Shown: positions 2,498 through 18,357 of the stretch, piece by piece | Numbering within the stretch: position 1 is the first letter of the stretch | Layout: the number at the start of each line of letters is the position of its first letter | IMG/VR virus record: IMGVR_UViG_2597489893_000006 | Location: 1-18,357 of that record | Direction: 5' to 3' (one strand) | From: a virus | Taxonomy: Duplodnaviria > Heunggongvirae > Uroviricota > Caudoviricetes | DNA: 18,357 nucleotides | Position numbers and translations under genes: made by a program | Notes under the pieces: model-generated | What the model saw: the letters and a program-made list of their open reading frames with translations, nothing else | Database searches by the model: none | What the model was told of the DNA's origin: nothing

Positions 2498-2516
2498 ATG
2501 TTCAATAACCCTTAAG

Positions 2517-2550
2517 ATAACTTCGTATAATGTATGCTATACGAAGTTAT
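2517..2550. other. loxP: loxP recombination site
   Basis: Exact ATAACTTCGTATA-ATGTATGC-TATACGAAGTTAT: 13-bp inverted repeats flanking the 8-bp asymmetric spacer. Confidence 0.98.
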
Positions 2551-2593
2551 TAGGTCTGAAGAGGAGTTTACGTCCAGCTGCGCATAAAAATCA

Positions 2594-2610
2594 AGAATTA
2601 TTAGAGCAAT
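2594..2610 (-). promoter_or_regulatory. C1 operator (reverse orientation) upstream of coi-c1
   Basis: agaattattagagcaat matches the reverse complement of the operator consensus at 15/17. Confidence 0.6.
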
Positions 2611-2670
2611 AAATTTTGAGAGAAAAATCCCACTCCACCAGCCAAAAACTGGATTGTTTTTCATAGTTGT

Positions 2671-2697
2671 TTGACAATTGCTCTAATAAATTATAGT
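2671..2697 (+). promoter_or_regulatory. Rightward promoter (-35 TTGACA, -10-like TATAGT) with an embedded C1 operator, directed at coi-c1
   Basis: TTGACA at 2671-2676 is followed directly by ATTGCTCTAATAAATTA at 2677-2693 (16/17 to consensus), overlapping TATAGT. Confidence 0.6.
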
Positions 2698-2931
2698 TTT
2701 GCCGCCGTTTCGTAATACAACTTTGGATTCACTATTTAATGTGTCTTCAGCGTTGTAGAGCGGCTCAGAAGGAAATGAGCAAACAGGGAAACCTTATACA
2801 ACGGCATTACAGCTATGCATTGCTCATCTTACACACAGCGCAATGTTGTAGGATTACCCCAGCATGGATCATGGGTGAAACAGTAGGTCAGAGCTTCAGG
2901 CTCTGTGTTGTCAATACAGTGAGGCATAATT

Positions 2932-3141
2932 ATGGCTTTCATTCCACCAACCATCGACGACGTTAGACATTGCTCTAACGCTTTATCTGTAGACCCCGCC
3001 GAAACCGACGCTGCCCGCGCCATTGCTGAACACTACTCAAAGATATCCAATCAGGAGTACCGCATCACCCAAGACGACCTGGATGATCTCACTGACACAA
3101 TCGAATATCTCATGGCCACTAACCAGCCAGACTCACAATAA
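2932..3141 (+). CDS. coi: Coi, C1 inactivator
   Basis: 69-aa ORF immediately upstream of and co-oriented with c1, size and position as in P1; acidic C-terminus. Confidence 0.8.
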   Translation: MAFIPPTIDDVRHCSNALSVDPAETDAARAIAEHYSKISNQEYRITQDDLDDLTDTIEYLMATNQPDSQ

Positions 3142-3157
3142 ATGCACTAATAAATCT
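3141..3157 (+). promoter_or_regulatory. C1-operator-like 17-mer in the coi-c1 intergenic region
   Basis: aatgcactaataaatct matches the consensus at 14/17; sits at the coi stop codon. Confidence 0.45.
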
Positions 3158-3186
3158 ATTATTTTCGTTGGATCCTTCTATAATGG

Positions 3187-3229
3187 TGGCCAACAACTCC
3201 CAGTGTAATCCGCTGTGAGTTGTTGGCCA
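3187..3229 (+). promoter_or_regulatory. Perfect 13-bp inverted repeat (stem-loop) 10 nt upstream of the c1 Shine-Dalgarno
   Basis: TGGCCAACAACTC at 3187-3199 and GAGTTGTTGGCCA at 3217-3229 with a 17-nt loop; no downstream U-tract. Confidence 0.4.
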
Positions 3230-3251
3230 TGTCAATTCTGGAGGAGGATCA

Positions 3252-4103
3252 ATGATAAATTATGTCTACGGCGAACAACTGTACCAGGAGTTCGTCAGCT
3301 TCAGGGATCTCTTTCTAAAAAAAGCTGTTGCACGCGCCCAACACGTTGATGCCGCCAGCGACGGTCGTCCTGTTCGCCCGGTTGTCGTTCTGCCGTTCAA
3401 AGAAACGGACAGCATTCAGGCTGAAATTGATAAATGGACTTTAATGGCGCGGGAACTGGAACAGTACCCAGACCTCAATATCCCAAAGACTATTTTATAT
3501 CCAGTGCCTAACATCCTTCGCGGTGTGCGTAAGGTTACAACTTATCAGACAGAAGCTGTGAACAGCGTCAACATGACCGCTGGCCGCATTATTCATCTGA
3601 TTGATAAGGACATTCGCATCCAGAAAAGCGCGGGGATCAATGAGCACAGTGCGAAATACATAGAGAACCTGGAAGCAACAAAAGAGCTAATGAAGCAGTA
3701 CCCGGAGGATGAAAAATTCCGTATGCGTGTACACGGCTTTAGCGAAACAATGTTGCGCGTCCATTACATTTCCAGTAGCCCTAACTACAATGATGGTAAA
3801 TCAGTTAGTTACCATGTGCCGCTGTGTGGTGTGTTTATCTGCGATGAAACTCTCCGTGATGGAATCATCATCAACGGTGAATTCGAGAAAGCAAAATTTA
3901 GCCTTTATGACTCTATAGAACCGATCATCTGCGACCGCTGGCCGCAGGCAAAAATATATCGCCTGGCAGATATTGAAAATGTAAAAAAACAAATTGCCAT
4001 CACTCGCGAAGAGAAAAAGGTCAAATCAGCCGCATCAGTTACGCGCAGCCGTAAAACTAAGAAGGGGCAGCCAGTAAACAGCAACCCCGAAAGCGCGCAA
4101 TAG
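3252..4103 (+). CDS. c1: C1 repressor of lysis (primary immunity repressor)
   Basis: 283-aa ORF with strong GGAGGAGG Shine-Dalgarno; length, position next to coi and the operator sites fit P1 C1. Confidence 0.93.
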   Translation: MINYVYGEQLYQEFVSFRDLFLKKAVARAQHVDAASDGRPVRPVVVLPFKETDSIQAEIDKWTLMARELEQYPDLNIPKTILYPVPNILRGVRKVTTYQTEAVNSVNMTAGRIIHLIDKDIRIQKSAGINEHSAKYIENLEATKELMKQYPEDEKFRMRVHGFSETMLRVHYISSSPNYNDGKSVSYHVPLCGVFICDETLRDGIIINGEFEKAKFSLYDSIEPIICDRWPQAKIYRLADIENVKKQIAITREEKKVKSAASVTRSRKTKKGQPVNSNPESAQ

Positions 4104-4128
4104 TTTTCCATCCGGCATGGTCAAATTG

Positions 4129-5613
4129 TTATTCATTAAGCCATGCCAGAGCTTCATCAACCTGCGCTTCGTCTTCGACGCTAAGCACTTCATCTTGGGG
4201 AACATAGTTCGCCAACATAGCGAAACAATATGTATCCCAATGGTCCGGTGAGTGCAGGTTGAGTTTTTTCTTCATATCTTCCTTTGACATCACCTTCCAT
4301 TGACCTGCGGAATTTATCCCTACCGGTATCTTTGATGCTTCCTCTATAGTCGCAGCCCCCTTATCAAGCCGCATACGCCCTGATTTTACAGCTTCTGCCG
4401 CCTGAATATTCGCGAAAGCGCGCATATCGAAATAAAGGCTTTTATCTTCACGGCTGTGCATCTTTTTACCCCAGCGGATACGCTGGACGGTAATGCCATA
4501 GCGTTCGTACATTAGATCAGCCGTCGATTTCCCCAAGCCATCGCCATCAATAGCTATGGTTATGTTCGGGAACCGTTCTGGGTTACATTCTGCGAAAATC
4601 TTGGCGGCTAACTGCGTTTCTGTAACGTCTGTGTATTCCAGCATACGATAGTTGATTACACGGCGTTTATTTCGCTGGCCGGACACCATCATGATATTAA
4701 TAACGGACTTATCTCGTCCTGTGCCACCAGCAACGTCAACACATGCAACCCAGCCCCATCCTTTGGCAATCTTGACCTTTCGCCGCGTCGCCCGCTCAAC
4801 CTCATCACGACCAAGAAGAAAGCCATCTTGAGATTTGGGAAATTCACCACGTACTTTGATCATGTACATGGGGTTATCACGACCGCCATACTCCGCAAGT
4901 TTTGCTCGTATAAATTTTGCATCTACAAGCGGAGATTCTTCACTATTCAGTATTATCGCAGTAAACAATCCATCAGGATTTCCCGGGCGAATAGCTAGTC
5001 TGTGGTGTGAATCGTAGAAATAGCCTGAAGGTCGCGTAGGCTGGGAAAGAAGCAGAATACGGTTATCCTTACCGGTCAGCGCACCTGTTATCACACTGAA
5101 TGCTTTATCACTCACACCCGACGCTTCGTCGATGATATACAAGAGATGATCGGCGTGTTCACCAGCCAACGCCTCCTCATTTCCGGGGCGACAGGACTTT
5201 ATCAATATTGTCCAAACACCCTTGCCAGTCACCTCAAAAAAAGACGTTTCTGTAAGAATGAAATACTTCGACAACCACGGGAATCTGCTAACAGCAGTAG
5301 CCCAATTGCTCTTTATGTATTTGAAAATACCATCAAGGACTTGCTGTCTTTTGTTAGCGACCAGAATGACGCGAGCGCCGGGGAAAAACATGATGAAGAG
5401 TATTGCAATGATACTCGTCATATCCGATTTACCAGTACCATGGCCGGAGGTCACACTTGTCCAACTGCCGTCCTGCTGCGTGGACTCAATGATCTCATCC
5501 TGCTGCCAGGTTGGTGTCTTCCCAAACAACACATCAGCGGCCGCAATCCAGTCATAACGATATAGCGCCACAAGCTCGCGCCAACGTGGGTCCGTTACGC
5601 AACTTCTGGCCAT
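4129..5613 (-). CDS. pacB: PacB, terminase large subunit
   Basis: 494-aa ORF with a Walker-A-like SGHGTGKS motif; start overlaps the pacA stop (TAATG); convergent with c1. Confidence 0.9.
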
Positions 5614-6806
5614 TAATCATCATCCCCGTACAGTTTGCGGGTAACTTCTTCGTCTTCCTCCTCGTCTTCGTCCAGATCCTGTTCAAGCCATGCTTCGTTT
5701 GATATGCCTTCCGCATCGACATCACCATAACCACCTGTATCGACGATATCGGCAATTTCTTCTCTACGATGCTCAATCCACAATGCCGCATCAGCGCGGC
5801 GGCTGGCGGCCCGTTCTCGCGCGATTTTATCCAGATCTTCAAGTGATGGAGCGCCAGATGCTGTTTGGTTTTCCTCATCATCGGTATTGGTCTTAGGAGC
5901 ACGCAGATCGGCTTTGATTTGCTCCAGCATCAGGGGCGGCACTTTTCCTCCATGCGCCTCGATGAATTCAGCCGCTTCCAGCACTGACCAGTTATTTTCA
6001 CGCTTTCGTTCGTATGCCAGCTTAACAATGCCAGCTTGCCCCATAGACAAAGCGTGCTTTTCCGCCTCCCGGCTTTCTTTTCGATAGTTATTCCGGATGC
6101 TGTAAATGGTGTTGATCAGGCTGCTTATCTGCGCGGAACAGCTGTTTAGCATGCTCGCGATACGGTATTCAGGCGGAGTACCTTCATCATCGTCTTTTTG
6201 CTGATCGCGCATTTCCTGCACCAGGCGAATACACGTATCCCTGGCGTTCTCCAGCATAAGGAGATGAGAAAGAGACTTTTCCAGAAGAGTGGTTTCCAGA
6301 ACATCGGCCCCGGACCGACGCAACATAGCGCGCGCGGCCTTCCGCGCTTCAACGTTATCTATCAGGTAATCGCCAGCTTCGAATTCAAAGCGTTCACCAT
6401 CATCATCCAGGGTGTCGCGTTCCAGGCGATCACGTAAGGTCCGGTGGGCGCGGGTGATCACGTCATGATCATCTGAACGATCATTTATGCGCTTATTTTG
6501 GCGCTTCGCATTATCGACTGCGGCACTGACAACGGCATTAACTCTTTGTTTTTCATCCATTTCAGCCACAACGTGATCACCTGCACGTTGATCATTAGCG
6601 TGATCAATGATCATGCTTTTTAGTGGTTTCCTGACAGGCTTATTTGGCTTACGGCTGTCCGCTGTTCCGGTGTCTTCTTTGAATGCACGGAGATAACGAC
6701 GTGCGGTGTTTGGGTTGAGATTAAACTCGGCGGCATATTGTGCGATGGTGTAACCACCATCTCGCGCCAGGCGAGCAAAATTCTTCTTGTGATCGTCCCA
6801 GGTCAC
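5613..6806 (-). CDS. pacA: PacA, terminase small subunit / pac-recognition protein
   Basis: 397-aa ORF with an acidic C-terminal tail; contains the GATC-hexamer pac site within its coding sequence, as in P1. Confidence 0.9.
6427..6614. other. pac: pac packaging site: two clusters of TGATCA(G/C)-type hexamers flanking an ~90-bp region
   Basis: Cluster 1 at 6427-6484 (cGATCAc, TGATCAC, TGATCAT, cGATCAt) and cluster 2 at 6574-6613 (TGATCAC, TGATCAT, TGATCAA, TGATCAT); eight GATC sites in under 190 bp inside pacA. Confidence 0.8.
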
Positions 6807-6892
6807 TTATGCTTCCTTTCGTATAAAACTCTTTTTGACGCGAGGGTAACGAAAGTCACATGTCAAAAGGCCCGGAACGGGCAAGCAATCAA

Positions 6893-7345
6893 TCAGATAC
6901 GTGCGGATGTGGCATTACCGTAATGACGGTGCTGACGGACCACCTTATTGAAAAATTGACGCGCCATTACCCAAGGCTGGTGCTCCCGGCGTTCCTTTTC
7001 GTCCTGCGTCATATAGAGTTCGTTCTGGAGTTTTTCATCAAACCGGCGCGGAGCGCGACTGCGGCGAAAGAATTCAGGATTCAGAGAGTGGATCTGAAAT
7101 CTACGTGGGCGTGTACTGTCATCAATCAAAACAGACGAATACTTAGACACAGCGATAGCCTTTAAGCGCAGATAAACATCGCGCTTATCGACATCCAGAT
7201 GCGGGTATTCCTTTTCAAGAATTGCTGCGAGTTCTTTCGCTGATAGAAGAGATTTAGTGCGGATCATGTAATCCGCAATCTCGTACGATGTTATTCGTGA
7301 GTGATTTATTTCCATGAAGTGGCGTCCCTGCCAGTTAAGTAACAT
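6893..7345 (-). CDS. lpa: Lpa, late promoter activator
   Basis: 150-aa ORF between pacA and a C1-operator-containing promoter, matching P1 order; AGGTGA Shine-Dalgarno 4 nt upstream of the ATG. Confidence 0.75.
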   Translation of the reverse strand: MLLNWQGRHFMEINHSRITSYEIADYMIRTKSLLSAKELAAILEKEYPHLDVDKRDVYLRLKAIAVSKYSSVLIDDSTRPRRFQIHSLNPEFFRRSRAPRRFDEKLQNELYMTQDEKERREHQPWVMARQFFNKVVRQHRHYGNATSARI

Positions 7346-7415
7346 CCTGTCACCTACTGATTAGCCCATGTCAACTAATCAACGTCGAATATAATACCCT
7401 CGATTAAAGAAATAG

Positions 7416-7432
7416 CAATACATTAGAGCAAT
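7416..7432 (-). promoter_or_regulatory. C1 operator within the lpa promoter region
   Basis: caatacattagagcaat matches the reverse complement of the consensus at 14/17. On the minus strand it is followed by TTGCTA, 17 nt, TATTAT, then the lpa ribosome-binding site. Confidence 0.55.
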
Positions 7433-7433
7433 T

Positions 7434-8477
7434 TTATCTAACACTCGACGAATGACTTGTGATAGCGCCAACTCCAAGCGCGTAATCAAAGAACAATCGT
7501 TGATGCATCGCCAGCCTACCGTGCGTCTTCTCCCAATTATCGCGGTCACGCTCAATATCACGCTGGCATGACTGGCACAGAGGAATAGCATAAATGTCAT
7601 GCGCGCATAATCGACTATGACGAACTATATAAGGCGTAATGTGAGCGCCAGCTCCCGCAGCTCCACAGCCACAGCATGGACGGGAAGCCACAAAGTCCAT
7701 GTACTCGGGCAATTTTAGCGATTGAAGTTTTGGTATTTTGAAATGCGCCATACCTGGGTCGGAGTCAACATCCACAGGGCATACTTTTGCACGCATCGGC
7801 GCGGCGCGTTCTTCCATCATCTGAACATATGCTGTAGCGCGATCGTCATACGGGCGAATATCCGCCTCTTTCAGAGGTCCGCTATCCTGCGGAATAGCCT
7901 TCATCTTATTTATTGATATGCGGCAGACTTCTTCCGGCATCAGGTGCATCATGTTGCGCATGAAAGCCCACCAGCACAGCTCCTGAATACTTAAATCATG
8001 GCTATTTGAAAGGCCCATTTCCTGACGGGCGACATCCAGTATCCAGTTAACGCGATTATTGTGCAGCGTTTCTTTCAGCTCATTAAAACCACGCATCCGA
8101 TAATGGTGATCGTGATGCCAGCACAACAACACCGCGCTATTGTCTCGTTCAGCGTGGACAATATGGTTGTCACACCAACTACGATCTGCGGCCTGGCATT
8201 GCCCCTCTTTCCTGCGCAACCACGCCACCAGCGCGTCAATTCCACCAATACGGCGAAACAGTTCATCGCTGTTAAAAAACGGCTGCAACGCCTCATTTGT
8301 TGCCATGGTTTGCTCGGTAACAACGAGGCCGTCTTCCATGTGCTCGATTAACTCACGCGGCACCGGCTCCATAATAAATTTACGGCCAGCCTCCACCAGC
8401 TTTCTGACCTCCTGATCCACTTTGAACGTGGCGAGGCCAAGCTCTTTCTGTACAAAGGGAGTAATTACGGCTTTCAC
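7434..8477 (-). CDS. Cys/His-rich hypothetical protein (347 aa), possibly zinc-binding or HNH-like; occupies the post-doc position
   Basis: GTG start preceded by AAGGTG. Motifs CDNH...CWHHDHH...HNN and CCGCG...H...H..C.H...C..C. Co-oriented in the phd-doc operon; no confident family assignment. Confidence 0.6.
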
Positions 8478-8504
8478 ATCACACCTTTAATCACTGATTG
8501 GGCT

Positions 8505-8684
8505 TTATCTGCTGCCCGGCATTCTCTGTTTAAGCACAACCATTTCCTGACGGCATAACACAGCAATAGCAGTCCTGGCTCCAATTTGCTTACCAACCAG
8601 GTATTGCTTTACCTCGCGGCGACTCACGCCATCAAGAAGCATCTTTAACGCTTCACGGGACAATTTGTTGTATTTGCGTGCCAT
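8505..8684 (-). CDS. Small helix-turn-helix-like protein (59 aa), translationally coupled to doc
   Basis: ATG 4 nt after the doc stop, with GGAG 7 nt upstream. Sequence LSREALKMLLDGVSRREVKQYLVGKQIGARTAIAVL resembles a resolvase/invertase-type HTH. Confidence 0.5.
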   Translation of the reverse strand: MARKYNKLSREALKMLLDGVSRREVKQYLVGKQIGARTAIAVLCRQEMVVLKQRMPGSR

Positions 8685-8688
8685 TAAT

Positions 8689-9069
8689 CTACTCCGCAGA
8701 ACCATACAATCTACGTAACGTGTCGGCGACAGAAGATACAGATATCTCGCCAGTCGCAGCGCCTACAGTAAGGTCTGCCAGTTCAGGTGAATCAAATACC
8801 TGCACCCCGTTACGGCGTAGAAATAGCAGCGCGCTGTTTAGCGCGGTACGCTTATTGGCATCATTGAATATATGCCCTCTCGCTGTAGCCACCAGGTAGG
8901 TGGCGGAGACTTCGAAAAGGTCGGTGATCTCTTCGTAGGCAACTCTGGCCTGAACTCTCCCGATAATGGCCTCTGCCCTACCCGGATCTGACATTCCCGG
9001 CAGGCCGCCGTAGCGGCTTATATTCGCATCATGAAGCGCAATAAGTTCTTCCGGTGATATATGCCTCAT
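8689..9069 (-). CDS. doc: Doc toxin (Fic-family kinase)
   Basis: 126-aa translation with the Fic motif HIFNDANKR; start overlaps the phd stop (TAATG). Confidence 0.95.
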
Positions 9070-9290
9070 TATCGGTTAACCAGTTCCTTGTTGGTGGAGT
9101 CCAGGGTGTCAAACAGGGATGCAAATTCAGCATCCAGCGCCGCTTTTTTGTAGGCTTCGAAAGTAGCCTTGCTGACAATTACTGCTGGCTCACGACCTCT
9201 GCGGGTGATTTCAACCTCTTCCCCGGCTTCAACATTGTTGAGCACTTCAGAAAGGTTGCCGCGCGCGGTACGGAAGTTAATGGATTGCAT
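9069..9290 (-). CDS. phd: Phd antitoxin
   Basis: 73 aa from ATG at 9290 ([49 protein letters not shown]...), recognisable as P1 Phd. The ORF track's longer form starts at an upstream GTG. Confidence 0.95.
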
Positions 9291-9293
9291 AAA

Positions 9294-9330
9294 CACCTCG
9301 TGTACTCGTTATGTGTACACAATTATAAAC
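9294..9330 (-). promoter_or_regulatory. phd-doc promoter/operator: perfect TATAAT, palindrome TGTGTACACA and half-site GAGTACAC, then GAGGTG Shine-Dalgarno
   Basis: Minus strand reads TTTATAATTGTGTACACATAACGAGTACACGAGGTGTTTATG. Phd is known to autoregulate through palindromic operator sites in this promoter. Confidence 0.6.
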
Positions 9331-9466
9331 TTCACAGGCATAAAGCACCAGCACTTTGCGGCTTAACAAACCTCTAGGCAGGTCATTCGTAGCCTAATGT
9401 CCGAACTGCTAAAGCATCCAAGTTGCTGTAGAATCACCGCCAATTACATAAGCCTGAAATAAGTGG

Positions 9467-10501
9467 ATGAAAATGACAAGTATTCAACAACGTGCAGAGC
9501 TTCATCGTCAAATCTGGCAAATTGCTAACGATGTCAGGGGTTCGGTCGATGGATGGGATTTTAAGCAATACGTTCTGGGCGCACTTTTCTACCGTTTTAT
9601 CAGCGAAAATTTTTCCAGTTATATTGAAGCCGGTGATGACAGTATCTGTTATGCGAAACTGGATGACAGCGTAATTACTGATGACATTAAAGACGATGCC
9701 ATCAAAACTAAAGGCTACTTCATCTACCCCAGTCAGCTTTTCTGCAACGTAGCTGCGAAAGCAAATACCAATGACAGACTGAACGCAGATTTAAACAGCA
9801 TCTTCGTTGCTATCGAAAGTTCTGCTTACGGCTACCCTTCAGAAGCAGACATCAAAGGTTTGTTTGCTGATTTCGATACCACCAGTAACCGCCTGGGTAA
9901 CACCGTTAAAGATAAAAATGCCCGCCTGGCTGCGGTTCTGAAAGGGGTTGAAGGGTTAAAACTTGGTGACTTCAACGAACATCAGATTGACCTGTTCGGT
10001 GATGCCTATGAGTTCCTGATTTCTAACTATGCGGCAAATGCCGGTAAGTCAGGCGGTGAGTTCTTTACACCGCAGCACGTCTCCAAGCTGATTGCACAAC
10101 TGGCTATGCACGGGCAGACCAACGTTAACAAAATCTACGACCCGGCAGCGGGTTCCGGCTCACTGTTGTTGCAGGCTAAAAAGCAGTTTGATAACCATAT
10201 CATCGAAGAAGGCTTTTTTGGTCAGGAAATCAACCATACAACCTATAACCTGGCACGTATGAACATGTTTTTGCACAACATCAACTACGACAAGTTTGAT
10301 ATCAAGCTGGGTAATACACTGACTGAGCCACACTTCAGAGATGAAAAACCGTTTGATGCCATCGTTTCTAACCCGCCGTATTCGGTGAAATGGATTGGCA
10401 GCGATGACCCGACGCTGATTAACGATGAACGTTTTGCCCCGGCTGGCGTCCTGGCCCCCAAATCCAAAGCTGACTTTGCGTTTGTACTACATGCGCTGAA
10501 C
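9467..10501 (+). pseudogene. hsdM: hsdM (Type IC methyltransferase), 5' fragment of 345 codons, truncated by IS903
   Basis: Translation carries the AdoMet motif [10 protein letters not shown] and the N6-adenine motif NPPY. The reading frame runs into the IS903 inverted repeat and stops after 4 IS-encoded codons (GFVE-stop). Confidence 0.9.
10493..10501. repeat. IS903 target-site duplication, left copy (GCGCTGAAC)
   Basis: Identical 9-mer found at 11559-11567 directly flanking the other inverted repeat. Confidence 0.9.
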
Positions 10502-11558
10502 GGCTTTGTTGAATAAATCAGATTTCGGGTAAGTCTCCCCCGTAGCGGGTTGTGTTTTCAGGCAATACGCACGCTTTCAGGCATACCTGCTTTCGTCATT
10601 TTGTTCAGCGCTCGTACCAGGGCCATAGCCTCTGCAACCTGACCATCGTAGTCACGCAGTGTCAGTGAACCCCCGAACAGCTGTTTTACCCGGTACATCG
10701 CCGTTTCCGCTATCGAGCGACGGTTGTAATCTGTTGTCCATTTCCACCGCGCATTACTCCCGGTCATTCGCTGATTAGCCACTGCACGGTTACGGTCTGC
10801 ATATTCACCGGGCCAGTAACCCGCACCTTTTCGGGGTGGGATAAGCGCGCTGATTTTCTTACGCCGCAGTTCATCGTGACATAGCCGGGTATCGTAAGCG
10901 CCATCGGCGGCGGCTGACCTGATTTTCCGGTGGGTTTGCCGGATTAACCCGGGGAAGGCCTCTGAGTCCGTAACGTTGTTCAGCGACAGGTCAGCGCAGA
11001 TGATTTCATGTGTTTTACTGTCAACGGCGAGATGCAGCTTACGCCAGATACGGCGGCGTTCCTGGCCATGCTTTTTGACTTTCCACTCGCCTTCACCGAA
11101 GACCTTCAGCCCGGTGGAATCAATTACCAGGTGTGCGATTTCACCCCGGGTGGGCGTTTTGAAACTGACATTAACCGACTTTGCCCGCCTGCTGACACAG
11201 CTGTAATCCGGGCAGCGTAGCGGAACGTTCATCAGAGAAAAAATGGAATCAATAAAGCCCTGCGCAGCGCGCAGGGTCAGCCTGAATACGCGTTTAATGA
11301 CCAGCACAGTCGTGATGGCAAGGTCAGAATAGCGCTGAGGTCTGCCTCGTGAAGAAGGTGTTGCTGACTCATACCAGGCCTGAATAGCTTCATCATCCAG
11401 CCAGAAAGTTATGGAGCCACGGTTGATGAGGGCTTTATTGTAGGTGGGCCAGTTGGTGATTTTGAACTTTTGCTTTGCCACGGAACGGTCTGCGTTGTCG
11501 GGAAGATACGTGATCTGATCCTTCAACTCAGCAAAAGTTCGATTTATTCAACAAAGCC
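10502..11558 (-). mobile_element. IS903 (IS5 family, IS903 group), complete 1057-bp copy
   Basis: Perfect 18-bp terminal inverted repeats GGCTTTGTTGAATAAATC (10502-10519) and GATTTATTCAACAAAGCC (11541-11558); length 1057 bp; 9-bp direct duplication on both sides; transposase ORF inside. Confidence 0.95.
10558..11481 (-). CDS. IS903 transposase (DDE), 307 aa from a GTG start
   Basis: Translation ...AKQKFKITNWPTYNKALINRGSITFWLDDEAIQAWYE... matches IS903/IS102 transposase as I recall it. The ORF track's 322-aa form begins at an upstream TTG. Confidence 0.88.
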   Translation of the reverse strand: MAKQKFKITNWPTYNKALINRGSITFWLDDEAIQAWYESATPSSRGRPQRYSDLAITTVLVIKRVFRLTLRAAQGFIDSIFSLMNVPLRCPDYSCVSRRAKSVNVSFKTPTRGEIAHLVIDSTGLKVFGEGEWKVKKHGQERRRIWRKLHLAVDSKTHEIICADLSLNNVTDSEAFPGLIRQTHRKIRSAAADGAYDTRLCHDELRRKKISALIPPRKGAGYWPGEYADRNRAVANQRMTGSNARWKWTTDYNRRSIAETAMYRVKQLFGGSLTLRDYDGQVAEAMALVRALNKMTKAGMPESVRIA

Positions 11559-11567
11559 GCGCTGAAC
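11559..11567. repeat. IS903 target-site duplication, right copy (GCGCTGAAC)
   Basis: Identical to 10493-10501. Confidence 0.9.
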
Positions 11568-12095
11568 TATCTTTCGGCCAAAGGTCGTGCTGCGATTGTC
11601 TGCTTCCCGGGTATTTTTTACCGTGGCGGCGCGGAGCAGAAAATCCGTCAGTATCTGGTCGATAATAACTATGTCGAAACCGTGATTTCACTGGCACCGA
11701 ACCTGTTCTTTGGCACCACTATTGCTGTAAACATTCTGGTGCTGTCTAAACATAAAACGGATACCAAAGTTCAGTTTATTGATGCCAGCGAACTGTTCAA
11801 AAAAGAAACCAACAACAATATCCTGACCGATGCCCATATCGAACAGATTATGCAGGTATTTGCCAGCAAGGAAGATGTTGCTCATCTGGCGAAATCTGTT
11901 GCGTTTGAGACTGTTGTCGCGAATGACTATAACCTGTCGGTGAGCAGCTATGTGGAAGCGAAAGATAACCGCGAAATTATCGATATCGGTGAGCTGAATG
12001 CAGAGCTGAAAACCACGGTCAGCAAAATCGACCAGTTGCGTAAAGATATTGATGCAATTGTGGCTGAAATTGAAGGCTGCGAGGTGCAGAAATGA
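11559..12095 (+). pseudogene. hsdM: hsdM 3' fragment (C-terminal 175 codons plus the duplicated ALN codons)
   Basis: Frame continues from the duplicated GCG CTG AAC into [49 protein letters not shown]... Removing the IS and one duplication copy restores a 520-codon ORF (the 1066-bp insertion is a +1 frame shift, which matches the observed frames). Confidence 0.9.
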
Positions 12096-13297
12096 GCGAG
12101 ATGAGTTATCTGGAAAAATTGCTGGATGGGGTTGAGGTTGAGTGGAAGACACTTGGGCAAACTTGCAAAATTGAAACAGGAAAGCTTAATGCGAATGCGG
12201 CTGTTGATGATGGAGAGTATATGTTCTTCACGACAGCCAAAGAGACAAGCAAAATTGATAAATTCCGCTGGGATACAGAGGCATTGCTGATTGCAGGCAA
12301 TGCGAATGTTGGTGAGGTGAAGCATTACATCGGCAAGTTTGAGGCTTATCAGCGCACCTATGTTCTGACAAATTTCGACGAAAATGTAAGTGTTAGATTT
12401 TTGTATTTTGTGCTTAGCCATAGCCTGAAGAAATATCTCGAGGAAAGAACAAATAGCGCGGCAATGACATATATCGTGCTATCAACCTTAGAGAATTTCC
12501 CTATCCCCATCCCCTGCCCGGATAATCCGGAAAAATCCCTTGCCATCCAGTCTGAAATCGTTCGGATTCTGGATAAATTTACTGCACTTACCGCTGAGCT
12601 TACCGCTGAGCTTAACATGCGTAAAAAACAGTACAACTACTATCGCGACCAGTTGTTGAGTTTTAAAGATGGTGAGGTTGAGTGGAAGACTTTGGGGGAA
12701 ATTGGAGATTTTACATATGGATATGCAGCCAAAGCCATGGATTCAGGAGATGCCCGTTTCGTGAGAATTACTGACATAAATAAAGACGGGAAGCTATCGA
12801 AAGAAAACCCAATGTACGTTGAATTAAATGAGGAAAATGAGAAATATACCTTAGACAAAAATGATTTACTCATGGCAAGAACTGGGGCAACCTTTGGTAA
12901 AACAATGATTTTTGAAGAAGATTATCCAGCAGTATACGCTGGTTTTTTAATAAAGTTGAACCTAAATAAAACGATTATTAATGCCAAATATTACTGGCAC
13001 TTTGCACAAAGTGATTTTTTTTGGGAACAGGCTAATAAATTAGTATCTGGTGGTGGGCAACCACAGTTTAATGCTAATGCACTGAAACAAGTCAGAGTAC
13101 CTATTCCATACCCATCTCACCCTCAAAAATCTTTAGACGAACAGGGGCGTATTGTGGATATTCTGGATAAGTTTGATGCAATCGCAGCTTCCATCACCGA
13201 AGGTCTTCCGCGTGAAATCGAGTTGCGCCAGAAACAATACGAATACTACCGTGATTTACTGTTCAGTTTCCCGAAACCTGAAACTGCCAGTAATTAA
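12092..13297 (+). CDS. hsdS: HsdS, Type IC specificity subunit
   Basis: 401 aa; ATG overlaps the hsdM stop (ATGA). Conserved N-terminal, central and C-terminal regions with internal duplication (VEWKTLG twice; ILDKF twice) and a central TAELTAEL repeat; two variable target-recognition domains. Confidence 0.9.
12587..12610 (+). repeat. Two tandem copies of the 12-bp repeat CTTACCGCTGAG (encoding TAEL-TAEL) in the hsdS central conserved region
   Basis: Directly visible tandem repeat. In the EcoR124I/EcoR124II family the copy number (2 versus 3) sets the spacer length of the recognition sequence. Confidence 0.85.
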
Positions 13298-13418
13298 TTG
13301 ATCATTGCTACCGATCGGACCACCTTAACACCCGGTCAGTATATAGACTATTTTTTACGCGCCGGAAGTCACCATTACCCCCCTTCCGGCCCTTGCCAGA
13401 CGGCACAAAGGATGCGCT

Positions 13419-16400
13419 ATGACTCATCAGACACACACCATTGCTGAATCCAATAACTTTATCGTTCTTGATAAGTACATCAAAGCTGAGCCAACAGGCG
13501 ACAGCTACCAGAGCGAATCGGACCTGGAACGTGAACTGATTCAGGACCTGCAAAATCAGGGTTATGAATTTATTTCCGTAAAATCACAGTCGGCAATGCT
13601 GTCCAATGTTCGGGAACAGCTTCAGAGCCTCAATGGTGTGATGTTTAATGACAGCGAGTGGCGGCGCTTCACGGAGCAGTATCTGGACAACCCCAGCGAT
13701 GGTATTCTGGATAAAACCCGTAAAATCCATATCGACTATATCTGCGACTTTATTTTTGATGACGGGCGACTTGAGAACATCTATTTGATAGATAAAAAGA
13801 ATCTCATGCGCAATAAGGTGCAGATTATCCAGCAGTTTGAACAGACGGGTTCTCATGCTAACCGTTATGACGTCACGATCCTGGTTAATGGTTTACCGCT
13901 GGTGCAAATCGAACTAAAAAAACGCGGGGTGGCGATTCGTGAGGCTTTCAACCAGATACATCGTTACAGTAAAGAGAGTTTTAACAGCGAAAATTCCCTG
14001 TTTAAGTATCTGCAACTGTTTGTCATTTCTAACGGCACCGATACCCGTTATTTTGCCAACACGACAAAGCGCGATAAAAACAGTTTTGACTTCACCATGA
14101 ATTGGGCGAAATCAGACAACACGCTGATTAAAGACCTCAAAGACTTTACCGCTACCTTTTTCCAGAAACATACTCTGCTGAATGTTCTGGTGAACTACAG
14201 CGTTTTTGACAGTAGTCAGACGCTACTGGTGATGCGACCGTACCAGATTGCCGCCACCGAGCGCATTCTGTGGAAAATTAAGAGTTCCTTTACAGCGAAG
14301 AACTGGTCAAAACCGGAAAGCGGTGGGTATATCTGGCACACTACCGGTTCTGGTAAAACCCTCACCAGCTTTAAAGCCGCGCGTCTGGCAACAGAGCTGG
14401 ACTTTATTGATAAAGTCTTCTTTGTGGTCGACAGGAAAGACCTCGATTACCAGACCATGAAGGAATATCAGCGTTTTTCGCCAGACAGCGTCAACGGCTC
14501 GGAAAATACCGCAGGCCTTAAACGAAATCTGGATAAGGACGATAACAAAATTATCGTCACTACTATTCAGAAACTCAATAACCTGATGAAAGCAGAAAGC
14601 GACCTGCCTGTATATAATCAGCAAGTGGTGTTTATATTTGATGAATGCCACCGCAGCCAGTTTGGAGAAGCGCAGAAAAACCTGAAGAAGAAATTCAAAC
14701 GCTATTATCAGTTTGGTTTTACCGGCACACCTATTTTCCCGGAAAACGCCTTAGGCTCAGAAACGACCGCCAGCGTATTTGGTCGTGAATTGCATTCGTA
14801 TGTAATTACCGATGCGATTCGTGATGAAAAAGTGCTCAAATTCAAGGTGGACTACAACGATGTGCGGCCACAGTTTAAGTCTTTAGAGACAGAAACTGAC
14901 GAGAAAAAACTAAGTGCGGCTGAAAATCAGCAGGCGTTTCTTCATCCCATGCGTATACAGGAAATTACGCAATATATTCTGAATAACTTCCGCCAGAAGA
15001 CGCACCGTACTTTCCCTGGCGCAAAAGGTTTTAATGCTATGTTGGCAGTGAGCAGCGTGGATGCTGCAAAAGCCTATTACGCGGCGTTTAAACGGTTACA
15101 AGAGGAAGCCGCTAATAAATCTGCAACTTATAAACCGCTGCGTGTTGCGACAATCTTCTCCTTTGCCGCTAATGAAGAACAAAATGCCATTGGTGAAATT
15201 TCCGATGAAACTTTTGATACCAGCGCAATGGACAGCAGTGCTAAAGAGTTTCTTGACGCTGCAATTCGTGAGTATAACAGCTATTTTAAAACTAACTTCA
15301 GCACCGACGGTAACGGTTTTCAGAACTACTATCGCGATTTAGCCCAACGGGTTAAAAATCAGGATATCGATCTGTTAATTGTCGTTGGGATGTTTTTAAC
15401 CGGCTTCGACGCTCCAACATTGAACACGCTATTCGTCGATAAAAACTTGCGTTTTCACGGCCTGATGCAGGCATTTTCCCGCACCAACCGCATTTATAAC
15501 GCCACTAAAACCTTCGGTAACATTGTCACTTTTCGGGATCTGGAACGCTCAACCATTGATGCCATAACGCTGTTTGGTGATAAAAATACCAAAAATGTGG
15601 TGTTAGAAAAGAGTTATGCAGAGTATATGGAAGGTTTTACTGATGCTGCCACCGGTGAAGCCAAACGCGGCTTTATGGCAGTAGTTTCAGAACTGGAACA
15701 ACGGTTCCCTGACCCTGCCAGTATTGAAAGTGAAAAAGAGAAGAAAGACTTCGTTAAACTGTTTGGCGAATACCTGCGTGCCGAGAACATCCTGCAAAAC
15801 TATGATGAATTTGCCACGCTAAAAGCCCTGCAACAAATCGATCTTAGCGATCCTGTTGCGGTAGAAAAATTCAAAGCAGAACATTATGTGGATGATGAAA
15901 AGTTCGCTGAATTGCAAACAATTCGTCTCCCTGCTGATCGCAAGATTCAGGATTATCGTTCTGCCTATAACGATATTCGCGACTGGCAGCGCCGTGAGAA
16001 AGAAGCTGAGAAAAAAGAGAAATCAACCACTGACTGGGATGACGTGGTTTTTGAGGTCGATTTGCTGAAGTCTCAGGAAATAAACCTGGATTATATCCTT
16101 GGACTGATTTTCGAACACAACAGACAAAATAAAGGCAAGGGCGAAATGATCGAAGAGGTCAAACGCTTAATTCGTTCAAGCCTGGGGAACCGGGCGAAAG
16201 AGGGCCTGGTGGTCGATTTTATTCAGCAAACGAACCTGGATGATTTACCAGACAAAGCCAGTATCATTGAGGCATTCTTTACGTTTGCTCAACGCGAACA
16301 GCAACGTGAAGCAGAAGCATTGATAAAAGAAGAAAATCTCAATGAAGATGCAGCAAAACGCTATATTCGCACGTCTTTAAAACGCGAATACGCCACCGAA

Positions 16401-16535
16401 AATGGCACAGAATTAAACGAAACATTACCAAAACTTAGTCCGTTGAATCCGCAATATAAAACGAAAAAACAGGCAGTTTTCCAGAAAATCGTCTCGTTTA
16501 TTGAGAAGTTTAAAGGCGTAGGCGGAAAAATATAG
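13419..16535 (+). CDS. hsdR: HsdR, Type IC restriction endonuclease/translocase subunit
   Basis: 1038 aa with an N-terminal PD-(D/E)xK-like nuclease motif (D...IELKK), Walker A TGSGKT and a DECH box ([10 protein letters not shown]); length equals EcoR124I HsdR. Confidence 0.93.
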
Positions 16536-16550
16536 CCCAATTCGTGTTTT

Positions 16551-16580
16551 TCTTGCGGGTTCTTAATTAAACCCGCAAGA
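16551..16580. repeat. Perfect 10-bp inverted repeat hairpin 16 nt after the hsdR stop, without a 3' U-tract
   Basis: TCTTGCGGGT (16551-16560) and ACCCGCAAGA (16571-16580) with a 10-nt loop. Confidence 0.4.
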
Positions 16581-16614
16581 GCTCGTGGGGTTCCAAATGG
16601 CTAATATACTCCCC

Positions 16615-16701
16615 TTACCCATGCGCGACGATGCCGTCAAAAGTGATAGAGAACAGCCAGAAATAGATCGCGGCCATAATGATTTTGAATGCCGTGTTCA
16701 T
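16615..16701 (-). CDS. Candidate small hydrophobic peptide, 28 aa (MNTAFKIIMAAIYFWLFSITFDGIVAHG)
   Basis: ATG preceded by AGGAG with an 8-nt spacer; one predicted transmembrane-like segment. Lies antisense between the hsdR stop and the plus-strand terminator, downstream of a C1-operator-like site. Confidence 0.3.
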   Translation of the reverse strand: MNTAFKIIMAAIYFWLFSITFDGIVAHG

Positions 16702-16727
16702 ATTTTCAGCTCCTGTGATTGATTGGA

Positions 16728-16761
16728 AACATGCCGCGCCTTGCGGCATGTTTTTATTTTT
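16728..16761 (+). terminator. Rho-independent terminator (plus-strand orientation)
   Basis: AACATGCCGC-GCCTT-GCGGCATGTT (10-bp stem) followed by TTTTTATTTTT. Confidence 0.7.
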
Positions 16762-16783
16762 ACTTTCTCTGTTTTAAAAATCA

Positions 16784-16800
16784 AGATTTATTAGAACAAT
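16784..16800 (-). promoter_or_regulatory. C1-operator-like 17-mer abutting the stop codon of the HAD-like gene
   Basis: agatttattagaacaat matches the reverse complement of the consensus at 15/17. It shares the extended context AAAAATCAAGA with the operator at 2594-2610. Confidence 0.5.
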
Positions 16801-17306
16801 TATTGTTGATGAAGAAGCGCATTTTCATACTCCCTGACCATTAATGTAAGTACGCCATGACTCCTGAACACACGCGCCACTTCAATCTTATCTTCCAGCG
16901 CGAACGCAATTTTACTTAGACCAATTTTCTTCAGGAGATCAATCTTTGCTGGACCGTCATTTCTGTCATCGGTGGCAGGACGCATAGATAGCAAAGGCTC
17001 AGCCCCGTTTGTTACGTACTTCCGCAGCCAGGCTCGTGTTTTATCCCTTGCGATCTCACAGCGCCCGGTTACAAACCAGACCGTGTAAACGTTAAATAAC
17101 TGGCGCACCATATCAATAACTGGAGTGATGGGAGCATCAGTGTCACAGGCAAGGTTAAACTCGTTCCAGTGCTCTGTTAATGCACCTTTGCCAGGTGGTG
17201 GAAGTAAATGCAGCCTGTCTTCCGTTGCCTCTGATATCGTCCCATCAATATCTACTATGACGATGTACGGACGTTCCTGGTGTGCGTGTTTATTGAAAAT
17301 ACTCAA
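16800..17306 (-). CDS. HAD-superfamily phosphatase-like protein (DxDGT motif), 168 aa
   Basis: N-terminal IVIVDIDGTISE matches HAD motif I (as in polynucleotide kinase 3'-phosphatase domains and other HAD enzymes). Start is TTG preceded by GAGGAGGG. Confidence 0.6.
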   Translation of the reverse strand: MSIFNKHAHQERPYIVIVDIDGTISEATEDRLHLLPPPGKGALTEHWNEFNLACDTDAPITPVIDMVRQLFNVYTVWFVTGRCEIARDKTRAWLRKYVTNGAEPLLSMRPATDDRNDGPAKIDLLKKIGLSKIAFALEDKIEVARVFRSHGVLTLMVREYENALLHQQ

Positions 17307-17325
17307 ATGCCCTCCTCATTGGACG

Positions 17326-17358
17326 AAAAAAATGCTGGTGGGAGCACTCCACCAGCAT
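17326..17358 (-). terminator. Rho-independent terminator (minus strand) after the coiled-coil protein gene
   Basis: Minus strand reads ATGCTGGTGG-AGTGCTC-CCACCAGCAT followed by TTTTTTT. Confidence 0.65.
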
Positions 17359-17378
17359 TAAAAGTGACACTGTAACTA

Positions 17379-18356
17379 TCAGCGAACGTAAATAGTGCCG
17401 CCGTTCTCTTTTTCCCATGCATCGCTACGTGCATAGCAAACATCGAGAAGTCTTCTTGCCGCAGTTTCCTCTAAACCCAATTCGACAACCAACTGCTCAT
17501 GACGGCGGGTAACCACATCAAACAGGGTATGCAGCCCTTTAGTTGCCAGATCATCAATGAATTCCGGTTCGAACGGCAGCTCTGCATCTGCCAACATAAC
17601 CTCTTGCGCCCACTCAACTCGACGGACCAATTCCGGGCGGCGGCTTTCCATCTCTTTACAGATCAATTCATGGAAGAACTCTACCCAACCTTCCGGCTGA
17701 AACTCGCGGAAAATTGCCAACGGCTGGAAGTTTGGCATCAACCATTCGTTGATTCGGATATCAATGGCATAGCCCATGTCGCAGCAGAACTGATAAGCAA
17801 AGTCCAGCTTAGAAACGATATAAGGACGCTCGTTATTGAACTCTTTAGGCGATGAGATCCCATAAGCCAGGAGGCGCGGGAAGAAGGAGATTTGCCCTAA
17901 CGTCGGATGAAGTTTGCTTGCAGGGAAACGGCGCTCAGTAATGCCATACATTTCCTTCTTGAGCGTCGCAAATTTGGCATTCTCATTAACCAGCGCGGTA
18001 ACCTCTGCTTTTTTATTAGCAAATGCCACGCGCGCCTCGCTTGCATCTTTAATAGTTTTTTTGAGCTGTTGGTTAAGGTCGGCGACCTGCTTACGCAGTT
18101 CCTGTCGCTCGCTTTTAGCTTTGTTATAGCGTTTCTCAAGGTTAAAAGGATCAAGTTTCATGATCTCTTTATATTGAGATTTTAGCGTTGAAATCTGTGA
18201 GTTCCGCAGTTCAACCATCGCGGTCATTTCATTGAGTTTTGTTTCCAGCTCAATGCTTATACGTTCGGCATTATCAGCACGCTGGTTGGAGTCATGCGTC
18301 GCATCGTCGATCGCGTCCTGTTGCTGGTGACCTGCCCCCACGATTAGATACAACAC
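17379..18356 (-). CDS. Hypothetical protein with predicted coiled-coil region and C-terminal globular domain; 5' end beyond the window
   Basis: Open frame with no stop up to the window edge. About 100 residues of heptad-like Lys/Glu/Leu-rich sequence (ELETKLNEMTAMVELRNSQISTLKSQYKE...KQVADLNQQLKK...) are followed by a mixed hydrophobic/aromatic domain; no recognised catalytic motif. Confidence 0.55.
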   Translation of the reverse strand: MLYLIVGAGHQQQDAIDDATHDSNQRADNAERISIELETKLNEMTAMVELRNSQISTLKSQYKEIMKLDPFNLEKRYNKAKSERQELRKQVADLNQQLKKTIKDASEARVAFANKKAEVTALVNENAKFATLKKEMYGITERRFPASKLHPTLGQISFFPRLLAYGISSPKEFNNERPYIVSKLDFAYQFCCDMGYAIDIRINEWLMPNFQPLAIFREFQPEGWVEFFHELICKEMESRRPELVRRVEWAQEVMLADAELPFEPEFIDDLATKGLHTLFDVVTRRHEQLVVELGLEETAARRLLDVCYARSDAWEKENGGTIYVR

Positions 18357-18357
18357 T

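Follow-up and report, generated by a model that had tools for sequence, protein, structure and literature searches.

The DNA analysed here, referred to as the window, is a stretch of 18,357 bp that makes up the whole of contig AFYG01000054.1 of an E. coli draft genome; it is part of a P1-like phage-plasmid. The P1 core genes ref, cre, c1, pacA/pacB, lpa and phd-doc are found in syntenic order, and the called genes match the Pfam families RecA_dep_nuc, Phage_integrase, Phage_P7_repressor_C1, BPP1_LPA, Fic and PhdYeFM. Plasmids with a P1-type gene set cover 94-100% of the window at about 99% identity. Such plasmids are about 64-104 kb in size among the matches listed at 98.8-99.2% identity; only 18 kb of the replicon lies in the window. 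One plasmid with the shared backbone is typed IncY, and 152 plasmids in PLSDB cover at least 80% of the window. Both ends of the contig stop at mobile-element boundaries. Comparison of the contig ends showed no inverted repeat between them, so they do not represent the two ends of a single element.

A type IC restriction-modification locus of the EcoR124 family lies beside the phd-doc addiction module, with its genes in the order hsdM-hsdS-hsdR that is also found in EcoR124I and EcoR124II (plasmid R124; PDB 7bst, 2w00). Once its frame is restored by removal of the insertion sequence (IS) and one repeat copy (see below), HsdM is identical to EcoR124II HsdM at 517 of 520 residues. HsdR has the same length as EcoR124 HsdR and matches it throughout (2277 bits against 2w00_A, residues 1-1038 against 1-1038); it contains no internal stop and differs from the HsdR of the related plasmid p1-T-HYM1 by four amino acids. 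Alignment to EcoR124II HsdS reveals the EcoR124-type conserved N-terminal, central and C-terminal regions in HsdS, and the two TAEL repeats of the central region (TAELTAEL) are shared with EcoR124I HsdS. In contrast, both target-recognition domains of HsdS are unlike those of EcoR124, which gives the system here a different specificity. The two systems also differ in location and in state: EcoR124 sits on R124, whereas the system described here is on a P1-like phage-plasmid, adjoining phd-doc, and its hsdM is interrupted. The 121-bp spacer preceding hsdR holds a sigma-70-like site at 13325-13354, which is a consensus match only.

The interruption is an IS903 (IS903B) element of 1057 bp, which splits hsdM after codon 345. 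Coordinates of all features are given in Table 1. The two ends of the IS form perfect 18-bp inverted repeats, and their likeness ends immediately past base 18. The element is flanked by a perfect 9-bp target-site duplication. Forward copies of GCGCTGAAC occur in the window at those two positions alone; the chance of a 9-bp match at two fixed positions is about 4^-9. Deletion of the IS and one copy of the repeat leaves an uninterrupted ORF of 520 codons (345 + 175), in which the restored junction reads CATGCGCTGAAC followed directly by TATCTTTCGG. The IS903 insertion that knocks out hsdM on this P1-like phage-plasmid of E. coli is thus confirmed to the base. The original prediction, which was made from the sequence alone, had named the element IS903 and the interrupted gene hsdM, and had described the perfect repeats and duplication, the restorable frame and the intact hsdS and hsdR; all of this holds, and the gene can further be assigned to type IC.

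Table 1. Features of the interrupted hsd locus and its surroundings (window coordinates)
Feature	Position	Strand	Remarks
phd-doc addiction module	8689..9290	-	divergent from hsdM; Pfam Fic and PhdYeFM, annotation of relatives
hsdM 5' part, codons 1-345	9467..10501	+	Pfam HsdM_N and N6_Mtase; TIGR00497 hsdM; EGV45480.1
Left 9-bp target-site duplication GCGCTGAAC	10493..10501		hsdM codons 343-345 (A-L-N)
IS903 / IS903B insertion sequence	10502..11558	-	transposase gene antisense to hsdM
Terminal inverted repeat GGCTTTGTTGAATAAATC, 18 bp	10502..10519		IS end distal to transposase start
IS903 transposase gene, 307 codons	10558..11481	-	start GTG at 11481; no internal stop
Terminal inverted repeat, 18 bp	11541..11558		transposase-start end; perfect reverse complement of 10502-10519
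Right 9-bp target-site duplication GCGCTGAAC	11559..11567		perfect copy
hsdM 3' part, codons 346-520 and stop	11568..12095	+	Pfam N6_Mtase profile positions 172-310
hsdS, 401 aa	12092..13297	+	intact; nucleotide-identical to hsdS of p1-T-HYM1
hsdR, 1038 aa	13419..16535	+	intact; Pfam HSDR_N, ResIII/SWI2_SNF2, T1R_D3, EcoR124_C

Across its full 1057 bp, the IS shares 99.9% identity with the IS903 annotated in phage HK022 (NC_002166), from which it differs by one base and in its insertion site. It is also 99.9% identical over its full length to IS903 of phage O276, 99.4% identical to the copy in phage P7 (AF503408), and identical at 1053 of 1057 positions to an IS903B copy in E. coli WCHEC050613. 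Near-identical copies carry the label 'IS903B family' from the NCBI annotation pipeline (PGAP). Its length of about 1057 bp, 18-bp inverted repeats, 9-bp target duplication and single DDE transposase of about 307 aa close to reference copies are those of the IS903 group of the IS5 family; the HK022 and P7 copies share the 1057-bp length, the GGCTTTGTTGAATAAATC ends, the 9-bp duplication and the 307-aa DDE transposase. The transposase matches Pfam DDE_Tnp_1_5 and DDE_Tnp_1, scores 357 bits against the NCBIfam model NF033579 for IS5 family transposases (cut-off 140), and is identical in protein sequence to the copies in L002 and L004. The mechanical ORF call is longer, at 322 aa from a TTG at 11526. 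Judging from its intact ends and ORF, the element should be able to transpose.

hsdM is cut midway through its N6_Mtase domain, between positions 171 and 172 of the 311-position Pfam profile, of which the 5' half of hsdM matches positions 2-171. The truncated ORF continues four codons into the IS (GFVE) and stops at 10514-10516; its product is 349 aa long, with the C-terminus ...HALN-GFVE. In the frame of the 3' half, the first start codon past the preceding stop is a GTG at 11682, which opens an ORF of 137 aa (11682-12095). The hsdM stop and the hsdS start overlap as ATGA at 12092-12095. The 137-aa ORF retains this overlap, an observation that counts against loss of hsdS expression.

A search of related isolates for the IS-free allele had been proposed, and that allele is found, for example in p1-T-HYM1 (NZ_CP141768.1). 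The IS-free P1-like plasmids p1-T-HYM1, MF510496.1 and NZ_CP080254.1 share ref, cre, c1, pacAB, lpa, DUF968, phd-doc, hsdMSR and the phosphatase gene with the window, and their hsdM and hsdS are nucleotide-identical to those described here once the IS is removed. They lack the IS in hsdM, and they show patches of substitutions in the cre region and, starting at the 3' end of hsdR, in the sequence that follows. Between about positions 2500 and 15385 of the window, only one mismatch separates the restored sequence from p1-T-HYM1; it lies at 13378 in the hsdS-hsdR spacer, and there are 0 mismatches in hsdM and hsdS. The 6-kb hsd locus of p1-T-HYM1 is in turn 100.0% identical in at least eight other plasmids among the matches listed. 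None of the 30 PLSDB matches listed has an IS in hsdM. The description of the insertion as recent-looking fits both the perfect repeats and the zero substitutions in the hsdM halves and hsdS relative to intact alleles. The insertion is evolutionarily recent, but it is inherited and not a transient state. A literature search on type I systems of P1-like elements returned nothing specific to this locus.

An artefact at the IS junctions had been named in the original prediction as a possible objection. It would require that short-read mis-assembly of a repeated element had placed the IS inside hsdM, which is extremely improbable. Repeats did break this assembly, as the window is an entire draft contig bounded by mobile elements. 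However, the 9-bp duplication is perfect and exactly restores a known ORF, which is a hallmark of real transposition and not of an artefact. In addition, a second sequencing run (SRR26685673), put together with another assembler (Logan), yielded a contig that is identical to window positions 9465-12697 (0 mismatches in 3233 bp) and spans both junctions. The insertion is not an assembly artefact, because this separately assembled contig carries the same insertion without a mismatch. Exact-protein look-up of the 349-aa stump returned AFYG01000054.1 and one further contig. The disrupted allele is not a one-off; it is present in two data sets. SRR26685673 may be the same strain re-sequenced, in which case it excludes an artefact but is not proof of a circulating allele.

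Wider searches were made for the junctions. No record covering both sides of the left junction (200 bp) was found in PLSDB (72,556 plasmids) or in the phage collection, and exact 31-33-mers of the junction gave no match in IMG/VR, the GTDB representative genomes or the JGI metagenomes. Of 5,426 complete E. coli genomes, WCHEC050613 alone had the left junction, and none had the right junction.

The arrangement can be explained by transposition of a single IS903 (IS903B-type) element by simple insertion into hsdM codons 343-345, which would have generated the customary 9-bp target duplication; we infer this pathway from the structure of the insertion. In type I systems, R docks on the M2S core via M, and neither S nor M alone binds DNA (PMC3874165); S needs M2 for DNA binding (PMC12707154). 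The 349-aa HsdM stump lacks the latter half of the methyltransferase domain and the entire C-terminal region. The M2S1 core is required for DNA binding, methylation and HsdR docking. Since HsdM is needed for all three, the plasmid's type I system is almost certainly to be expected to be r-m- despite its intact hsdS and hsdR. The earlier view that the whole system should be off is supported in this form, both by established type I biology and by the position of the cut inside the N6_Mtase domain. The insertion may also affect hsdS. Because the hsdS start overlaps the hsdM stop and about 1.6 kb of untranslated DNA now precedes hsdS, its translational coupling is lost; transcriptional polarity on hsdS is probable. 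A consensus scan found no promoter-like site on the + strand from 10502 to 12092, which is a weak negative. For a promoter at the IS end, outward-facing or hybrid, that could rescue hsdS, the same scan likewise gave no + strand match between the IS and hsdS.

The system would nevertheless be partly on if the intact hsdS/hsdR pair were served in trans by HsdM from another type IC system, adding a specificity, or, less plausibly, if the two HsdM fragments reassembled. Complementation between subunits is what defines type I families (PMC3874165; PMC12707154), type IC hsdM genes of about 96% identity are present in E. coli chromosomal islands, and 717 PLSDB plasmids carry the same type IC locus. 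hsdR is also preceded by a spacer of its own that holds a promoter-like site. On the other hand, hsdS lies behind the IS, uncoupled from hsdM translation and with no promoter-like site on the + strand in between, and no second hsdM is known in the AFYG strain. Since the catalytic domain itself is cut, function of a split HsdM is unlikely. Partial activity of either kind is considered quite improbable.

The chromosome of E. coli WCHEC050613 (NZ_CP019213.3) carries a diverged type IC hsdM to which an IS903B is joined at precisely this nucleotide, with the same orientation and an identical encoded transposase. Unlike the plasmid allele, to which it is only 95.8% identical, this truncated hsdM has no duplication and no 3' part beyond the IS; the far side of the IS borders an O-antigen-type gene cluster. 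Because the duplication and the 3' part are missing, the chromosomal arrangement is best read as a product of deletion or rearrangement, not as a simple insertion. Shared descent of the two junctions was rejected on the ground that divergence in the hsdM flank is 4%, one mismatch being 14 bp away from the join, whereas the two IS copies match at all but 4 of 1057 positions. The joins are therefore independent, although there are two only, and the shared position suggests a preferred target site. Published IS903 target preference is WTTYA-N9-TRAAW (tabulated in PMC2577343). The 5-bp flanks of the present target, TACAT and TATCT, agree with it at 4 of 10 positions, which is about chance; the published preference was therefore rejected as the cause of site choice. 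A combined reading, in which GCGCTGAAC in the conserved type IC hsdM is an IS903 hotspot beyond the published consensus and insertion and precise excision there toggle defence on phage-plasmids and genomic islands at the population level, is highly doubtful.

The original prediction also held that precise excision would switch the system back on. This is correct with respect to the sequence, in that the wild-type allele would be restored; 'switch' is too strong a word for a rare, host-mediated event. Precise excision of IS903-type elements is rare and transposase-independent, and IS903 is not known to excise at high frequency. A true phase-variable off switch would combine preferred-site insertion of IS903 in hsdM with precise excision frequent enough to toggle the population. 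The intact duplication and perfect inverted repeats do permit precise excision to the wild-type allele, and the same nucleotide and orientation were used by IS903B in the diverged chromosomal hsdM. Reversible IS-based switches also exist, in Pseudoalteromonas atlantica (IS492 in eps), in Neisseria meningitidis (IS1301 in siaA) and with IS5 in fucAO-fucPIK, from which that element is excised precisely (PMC5493358). The hsdM insertion resembles them in that a gene is inactivated, that precise excision would restore it and that there may be a preferred site. Reversion would be tolerated, given that type IC systems can establish with hsdR already expressed (PMC12707154). However, frequent excision and mixed ON/OFF populations belong to those systems and are hypothetical for hsdM. 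The identical disrupted allele in two data sets looks stable. Absence of the junction from the plasmid, IMG/VR, GTDB and JGI collections searched indicates that the site is rarely hit, and in the complete E. coli genomes the left junction occurs in one chromosome and the right junction never. The WCHEC050613 case, with no second junction or duplication, is a dead end and not a switch. Such a switch is very improbable, and nothing suggests that a real one operates here.

It is also possible, though unlikely, that the knockout is real but selected and not neutral, with the lost restriction barrier aiding uptake of foreign DNA or relieving self-restriction. Defects of the hsd locus recur in relatives: NZ_CP057359.1 has IS1 in hsdR, NZ_CP060066.1 has IS903B and ISKpn26, pE102651_87 has IS903B in hsdS together with a frameshifted hsdM, and hsdM is unannotated in CP142577.1 and CP122701.1. 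The contig ends show that the same replicon has gained further mobile elements. Against this, all three genes are annotated in about 22 of 26 plasmids with the same hsdS allele, so that loss is a minority state, and missing hsd annotations may stem from sequencing frameshifts. Moreover, insertions are simply tolerated in a place such as an accessory gene of a variable region (PMC9603915). Taken as a whole, a simple IS903 insertion that is recent but inherited, leaving the plasmid system with an expected null for both restriction and modification, is very likely the correct explanation.

The hsdM knockout is real and was correctly read, but it is ordinary. With it, the visible pattern of IS insertions in hsd loci of P1-like plasmids gains one clean, dated example. 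That IS903 has used one hsdM nucleotide repeatedly gives a small, testable lead as to how the element chooses its targets; otherwise, the insertion offers nothing new on transposition or restriction-modification. For users of the strain or the phage-plasmid, the type I system is predicted to give no methylation motif and no restriction barrier. This predicted null would bear on the interpretation of methylomes, on transformation efficiency and on susceptibility to phage.

The hsdM gene is interrupted by an insertion sequence (IS) lying between the only two forward copies of GCGCTGAAC in the whole window. The 18 bases at each end of the element, GGCTTTGTTGAATAAATC, are perfect reverse complements; similarity between the ends ceases past base 18. 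When the IS and one copy of the repeat are deleted in silico, hsdM becomes an open frame of 520 codons. The original prediction of perfect inverted repeats, a perfect target duplication and a precisely restorable frame (345 + 175 = 520) is thus confirmed.

Features of the interrupted hsd locus and the right end of the window
Feature	Position	Size	Remark
hsdM, 5' part	9467-10501	345 codons	followed by four IS codons (GFVE) and a stop
Left repeat	10493-10501	9 bp	GCGCTGAAC
IS903	10502-11558	1057 bp	
Transposase start GTG	11481	307 codons	
Transposase start TTG	11526	322 codons	
Right repeat	11559-11567	9 bp	GCGCTGAAC
In-frame ORF	11682-12095	137 aa	GTG start
hsdM stop/hsdS start	12092-12095		ATGA overlap; end of restored hsdM
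hsdS	12092-13297	401 aa	
hsdR	13419-16535	1038 aa	
ORF at right end	17379-18356	325 aa	
IS3-like end	18318-18357	about 40 bases	

Across its whole length, the IS has 99.9% identity to the annotated IS903 of phages HK022 and O276; against chromosomal copies labelled IS903B by PGAP (NCBI), it matches at 1052-1053 of 1057 positions. Its transposase frame is unbroken; the protein scores as an IS5-family DDE transposase, and two complete E. coli genomes encode an identical copy. Restored HsdM is identical to EcoR124II HsdM (PDB 7bst_D) at 517 of 520 residues, HsdR matches EcoR124 HsdR end to end, and HsdS shares the conserved N-terminal, central and C-terminal blocks of EcoR124; because of these matches, the genes are assigned to a type IC system. 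The hsdS spacer is of the same length type as in EcoR124I (two TAEL repeats), whereas both target-recognition domains are unrelated to those of EcoR124I and EcoR124II, and a different specificity is predicted. The claim that hsdS and hsdR are intact holds for both genes. Gene disruption by an IS is textbook biology, and each of the two components here shares at least 99% identity with elements already described; the finding of a disrupted hsdM is correct and cleanly documented, yet ordinary.

The window corresponds to the whole of contig AFYG01000054.1 in the E. coli draft assembly GCA_000224395.2; the deposited HsdM stump is EGV45480.1. Its gene content (Ref, Cre, C1 repressor, PacA/PacB, Lpa, DUF968, Phd-Doc, hsdMSR and a PNKP-type phosphatase) is that of a P1-like phage-plasmid, and coverage of the window of 80% or more is reached by 152 PLSDB plasmids, at approximately 95-99% identity. 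At the place of the hsd genes, P1 and P7 carry humD and neighbouring genes beside phd-doc; this stretch is among eight highly variable regions of P1-like plasmids in a survey (PMC9603915). P7 also has an IS903 in the variable region, a short way upstream of humD-phd-doc, the same neighbourhood as the window's hsd locus and IS903 (AF503408.1 92007-93063; 3501-4557 of the P7 stretch L008); it is 99.4% identical to the window IS.

Positions 1-29 match no close phage-plasmid relative, and positions 1-50 are 100% identical to 81043-81092 of the IncY P1-like plasmid NZ_CP061756.1, where the junction adjoins IS26 and a heat-resistance island (trx-GI, kefB-GI, psiE-GI, htpX). The left contig end is probably the edge of a heat-resistance-type island inserted beside ref. 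The last 40 or so bases at the right end lie off the phage-plasmid backbone and show approximately 92% similarity to one end of an ISSen4-like element of the IS3 family; hence another IS probably interrupts the 325-aa ORF in the genome of origin. Since the contig breaks at this repeat and not at IS903, the latter may be single-copy there.

An independent Logan contig from run SRR26685673 is identical to window 9465-12697 (0 mismatches in 3233 bp) and crosses both junctions. This removes the objection of an assembly artefact, which the original prediction had allowed for; the insertion is real. The disrupted allele is therefore present in two data sets, possibly from the same strain, and is inherited. 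The IS-free allele was sought among relatives and is present: none of the 30 close plasmid relatives listed has this IS in hsdM. From approximately 2500 to 15385, the IS-removed window has one mismatch, at intergenic position 13378, to the IS-free P1-like plasmid p1-T-HYM1 (NZ_CP141768.1); across the two hsdM halves and hsdS, it thus has the same nucleotide sequence as an allele that looks functional. The 6-kb hsd locus of p1-T-HYM1 recurs at 100.0% identity in at least eight other plasmids among the matches listed. The insertion looks recent, as had been proposed: the repeats are perfect, the transposase gene is undamaged and the flanking genes have not decayed.

Substitutions relative to p1-T-HYM1 are clustered, with approximately 90 in the cre region (500-2500), approximately 85 in the stretch that begins in the 3' third of hsdR (15386-18000) and one in the 12.9 kb between; the pattern is that of recombination patches. 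The HsdR proteins still differ at only four amino acids.

In E. coli WCHEC050613 (NZ_CP019213.3), a type IC hsdM is joined to IS903B at the same nucleotide and in the same orientation (L002, the locus from this chromosome, 9001-9200 versus window 10380-10620). This hsdM is chromosomal, and its island also carries Ag43, an antirestriction protein and cbtA/cbeA. It is only 95.8% identical to the window gene, and one mismatch lies 14 bp from the join; between the IS copies there are 4 differences in 1057 positions. The two joins thus arose independently. On its far side the WCHEC050613 element meets an O-antigen-type gene cluster without a duplication, and in a sister arrangement in E. coli GF43 the same IS meets hsdM at a point 366 bp farther downstream, consistent with IS-mediated deletion or rearrangement. 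The cluster (L002 10127-18029; 7493-12566 in the GF43 locus L004) contains glycosyltransferases, glf and an ABC exporter annotated rfbB. It adjoins the same IS903B copy in both strains, inside an Ag43/antirestriction/cbtA island and in place of the distal part of a type IC hsd locus; the hsdM breakpoints differ. Two independent captures on one nucleotide of a gene of approximately 1.5 kb have a roughly estimated chance of 1e-3, which points to a preferred target; with two events, the suggested IS903 hotspot is a lead rather than a finding. The published IS903 pattern WTTYA-N9-TRAAW matches the site at 4 of 10 positions and does not explain it.

Independent damage is found in the type IC locus of other P1-like or related plasmids. 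Plasmid pE102651_87 (L003 5073-7748) has IS903B at the hsdS start and a frameshifted hsdM. In PLSDB, NZ_CP057359.1 has a 778-bp, IS1-sized insertion, read as IS1 in hsdR, and NZ_CP060066.1 has IS903B and ISKpn26 within the locus; hsdR is unannotated in both. All three hsd genes are annotated in about 22 of 26 plasmids with the same hsdS allele.

It had been proposed that precise excision would switch the system back on. At the sequence level, excision between the 9-bp repeats would yield an allele identical to intact ones, and reversion should be viable, since type IC establishment is tolerated even with hsdR already expressed (PMC12707154). Reversible IS-based switches exist, and IS5 is capable of precise excision (PMC5493358). 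However, the same disrupted allele was found twice; the full allele with both junctions is absent from PLSDB, the phage collection and 5,426 complete E. coli genomes, and junction k-mers are absent from IMG/VR, GTDB representative genomes and JGI metagenomes. An on/off switch at a useful rate is thus unsupported; the statement is formally true and biologically unsupported.

With the IS in place, the Pfam N6_Mtase domain is split at profile position 171/172 of 311. The AdoMet and NPPY motifs remain in the HsdM stump, which lacks the remainder of the catalytic domain as well as the C-terminal region. As the hsdM stop overlaps the hsdS start, hsdS would lack upstream translating ribosomes, behind approximately 1.6 kb of untranslated DNA. 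The 137-aa ORF spans the C-terminal part of HsdM, is annotated by gene callers and retains the overlap; its translation, should it occur, could maintain part of the coupling to hsdS. A consensus scan, which is weak evidence, gave no plus-strand promoter-like site between the IS and hsdS and one in the spacer ahead of hsdR. Should the host have another type IC system, HsdM could come from there; the ability to exchange subunits is what defines type I families, and type IC hsdM genes approximately 96% identical to that of the window can be present on E. coli chromosomes. In type I enzymes, HsdR attaches to the M2S core via M, and S or M by itself does not bind DNA (PMC3874165). For the window's own system, the expected phenotype is therefore r-m-, with hsdS and hsdR stranded but intact.
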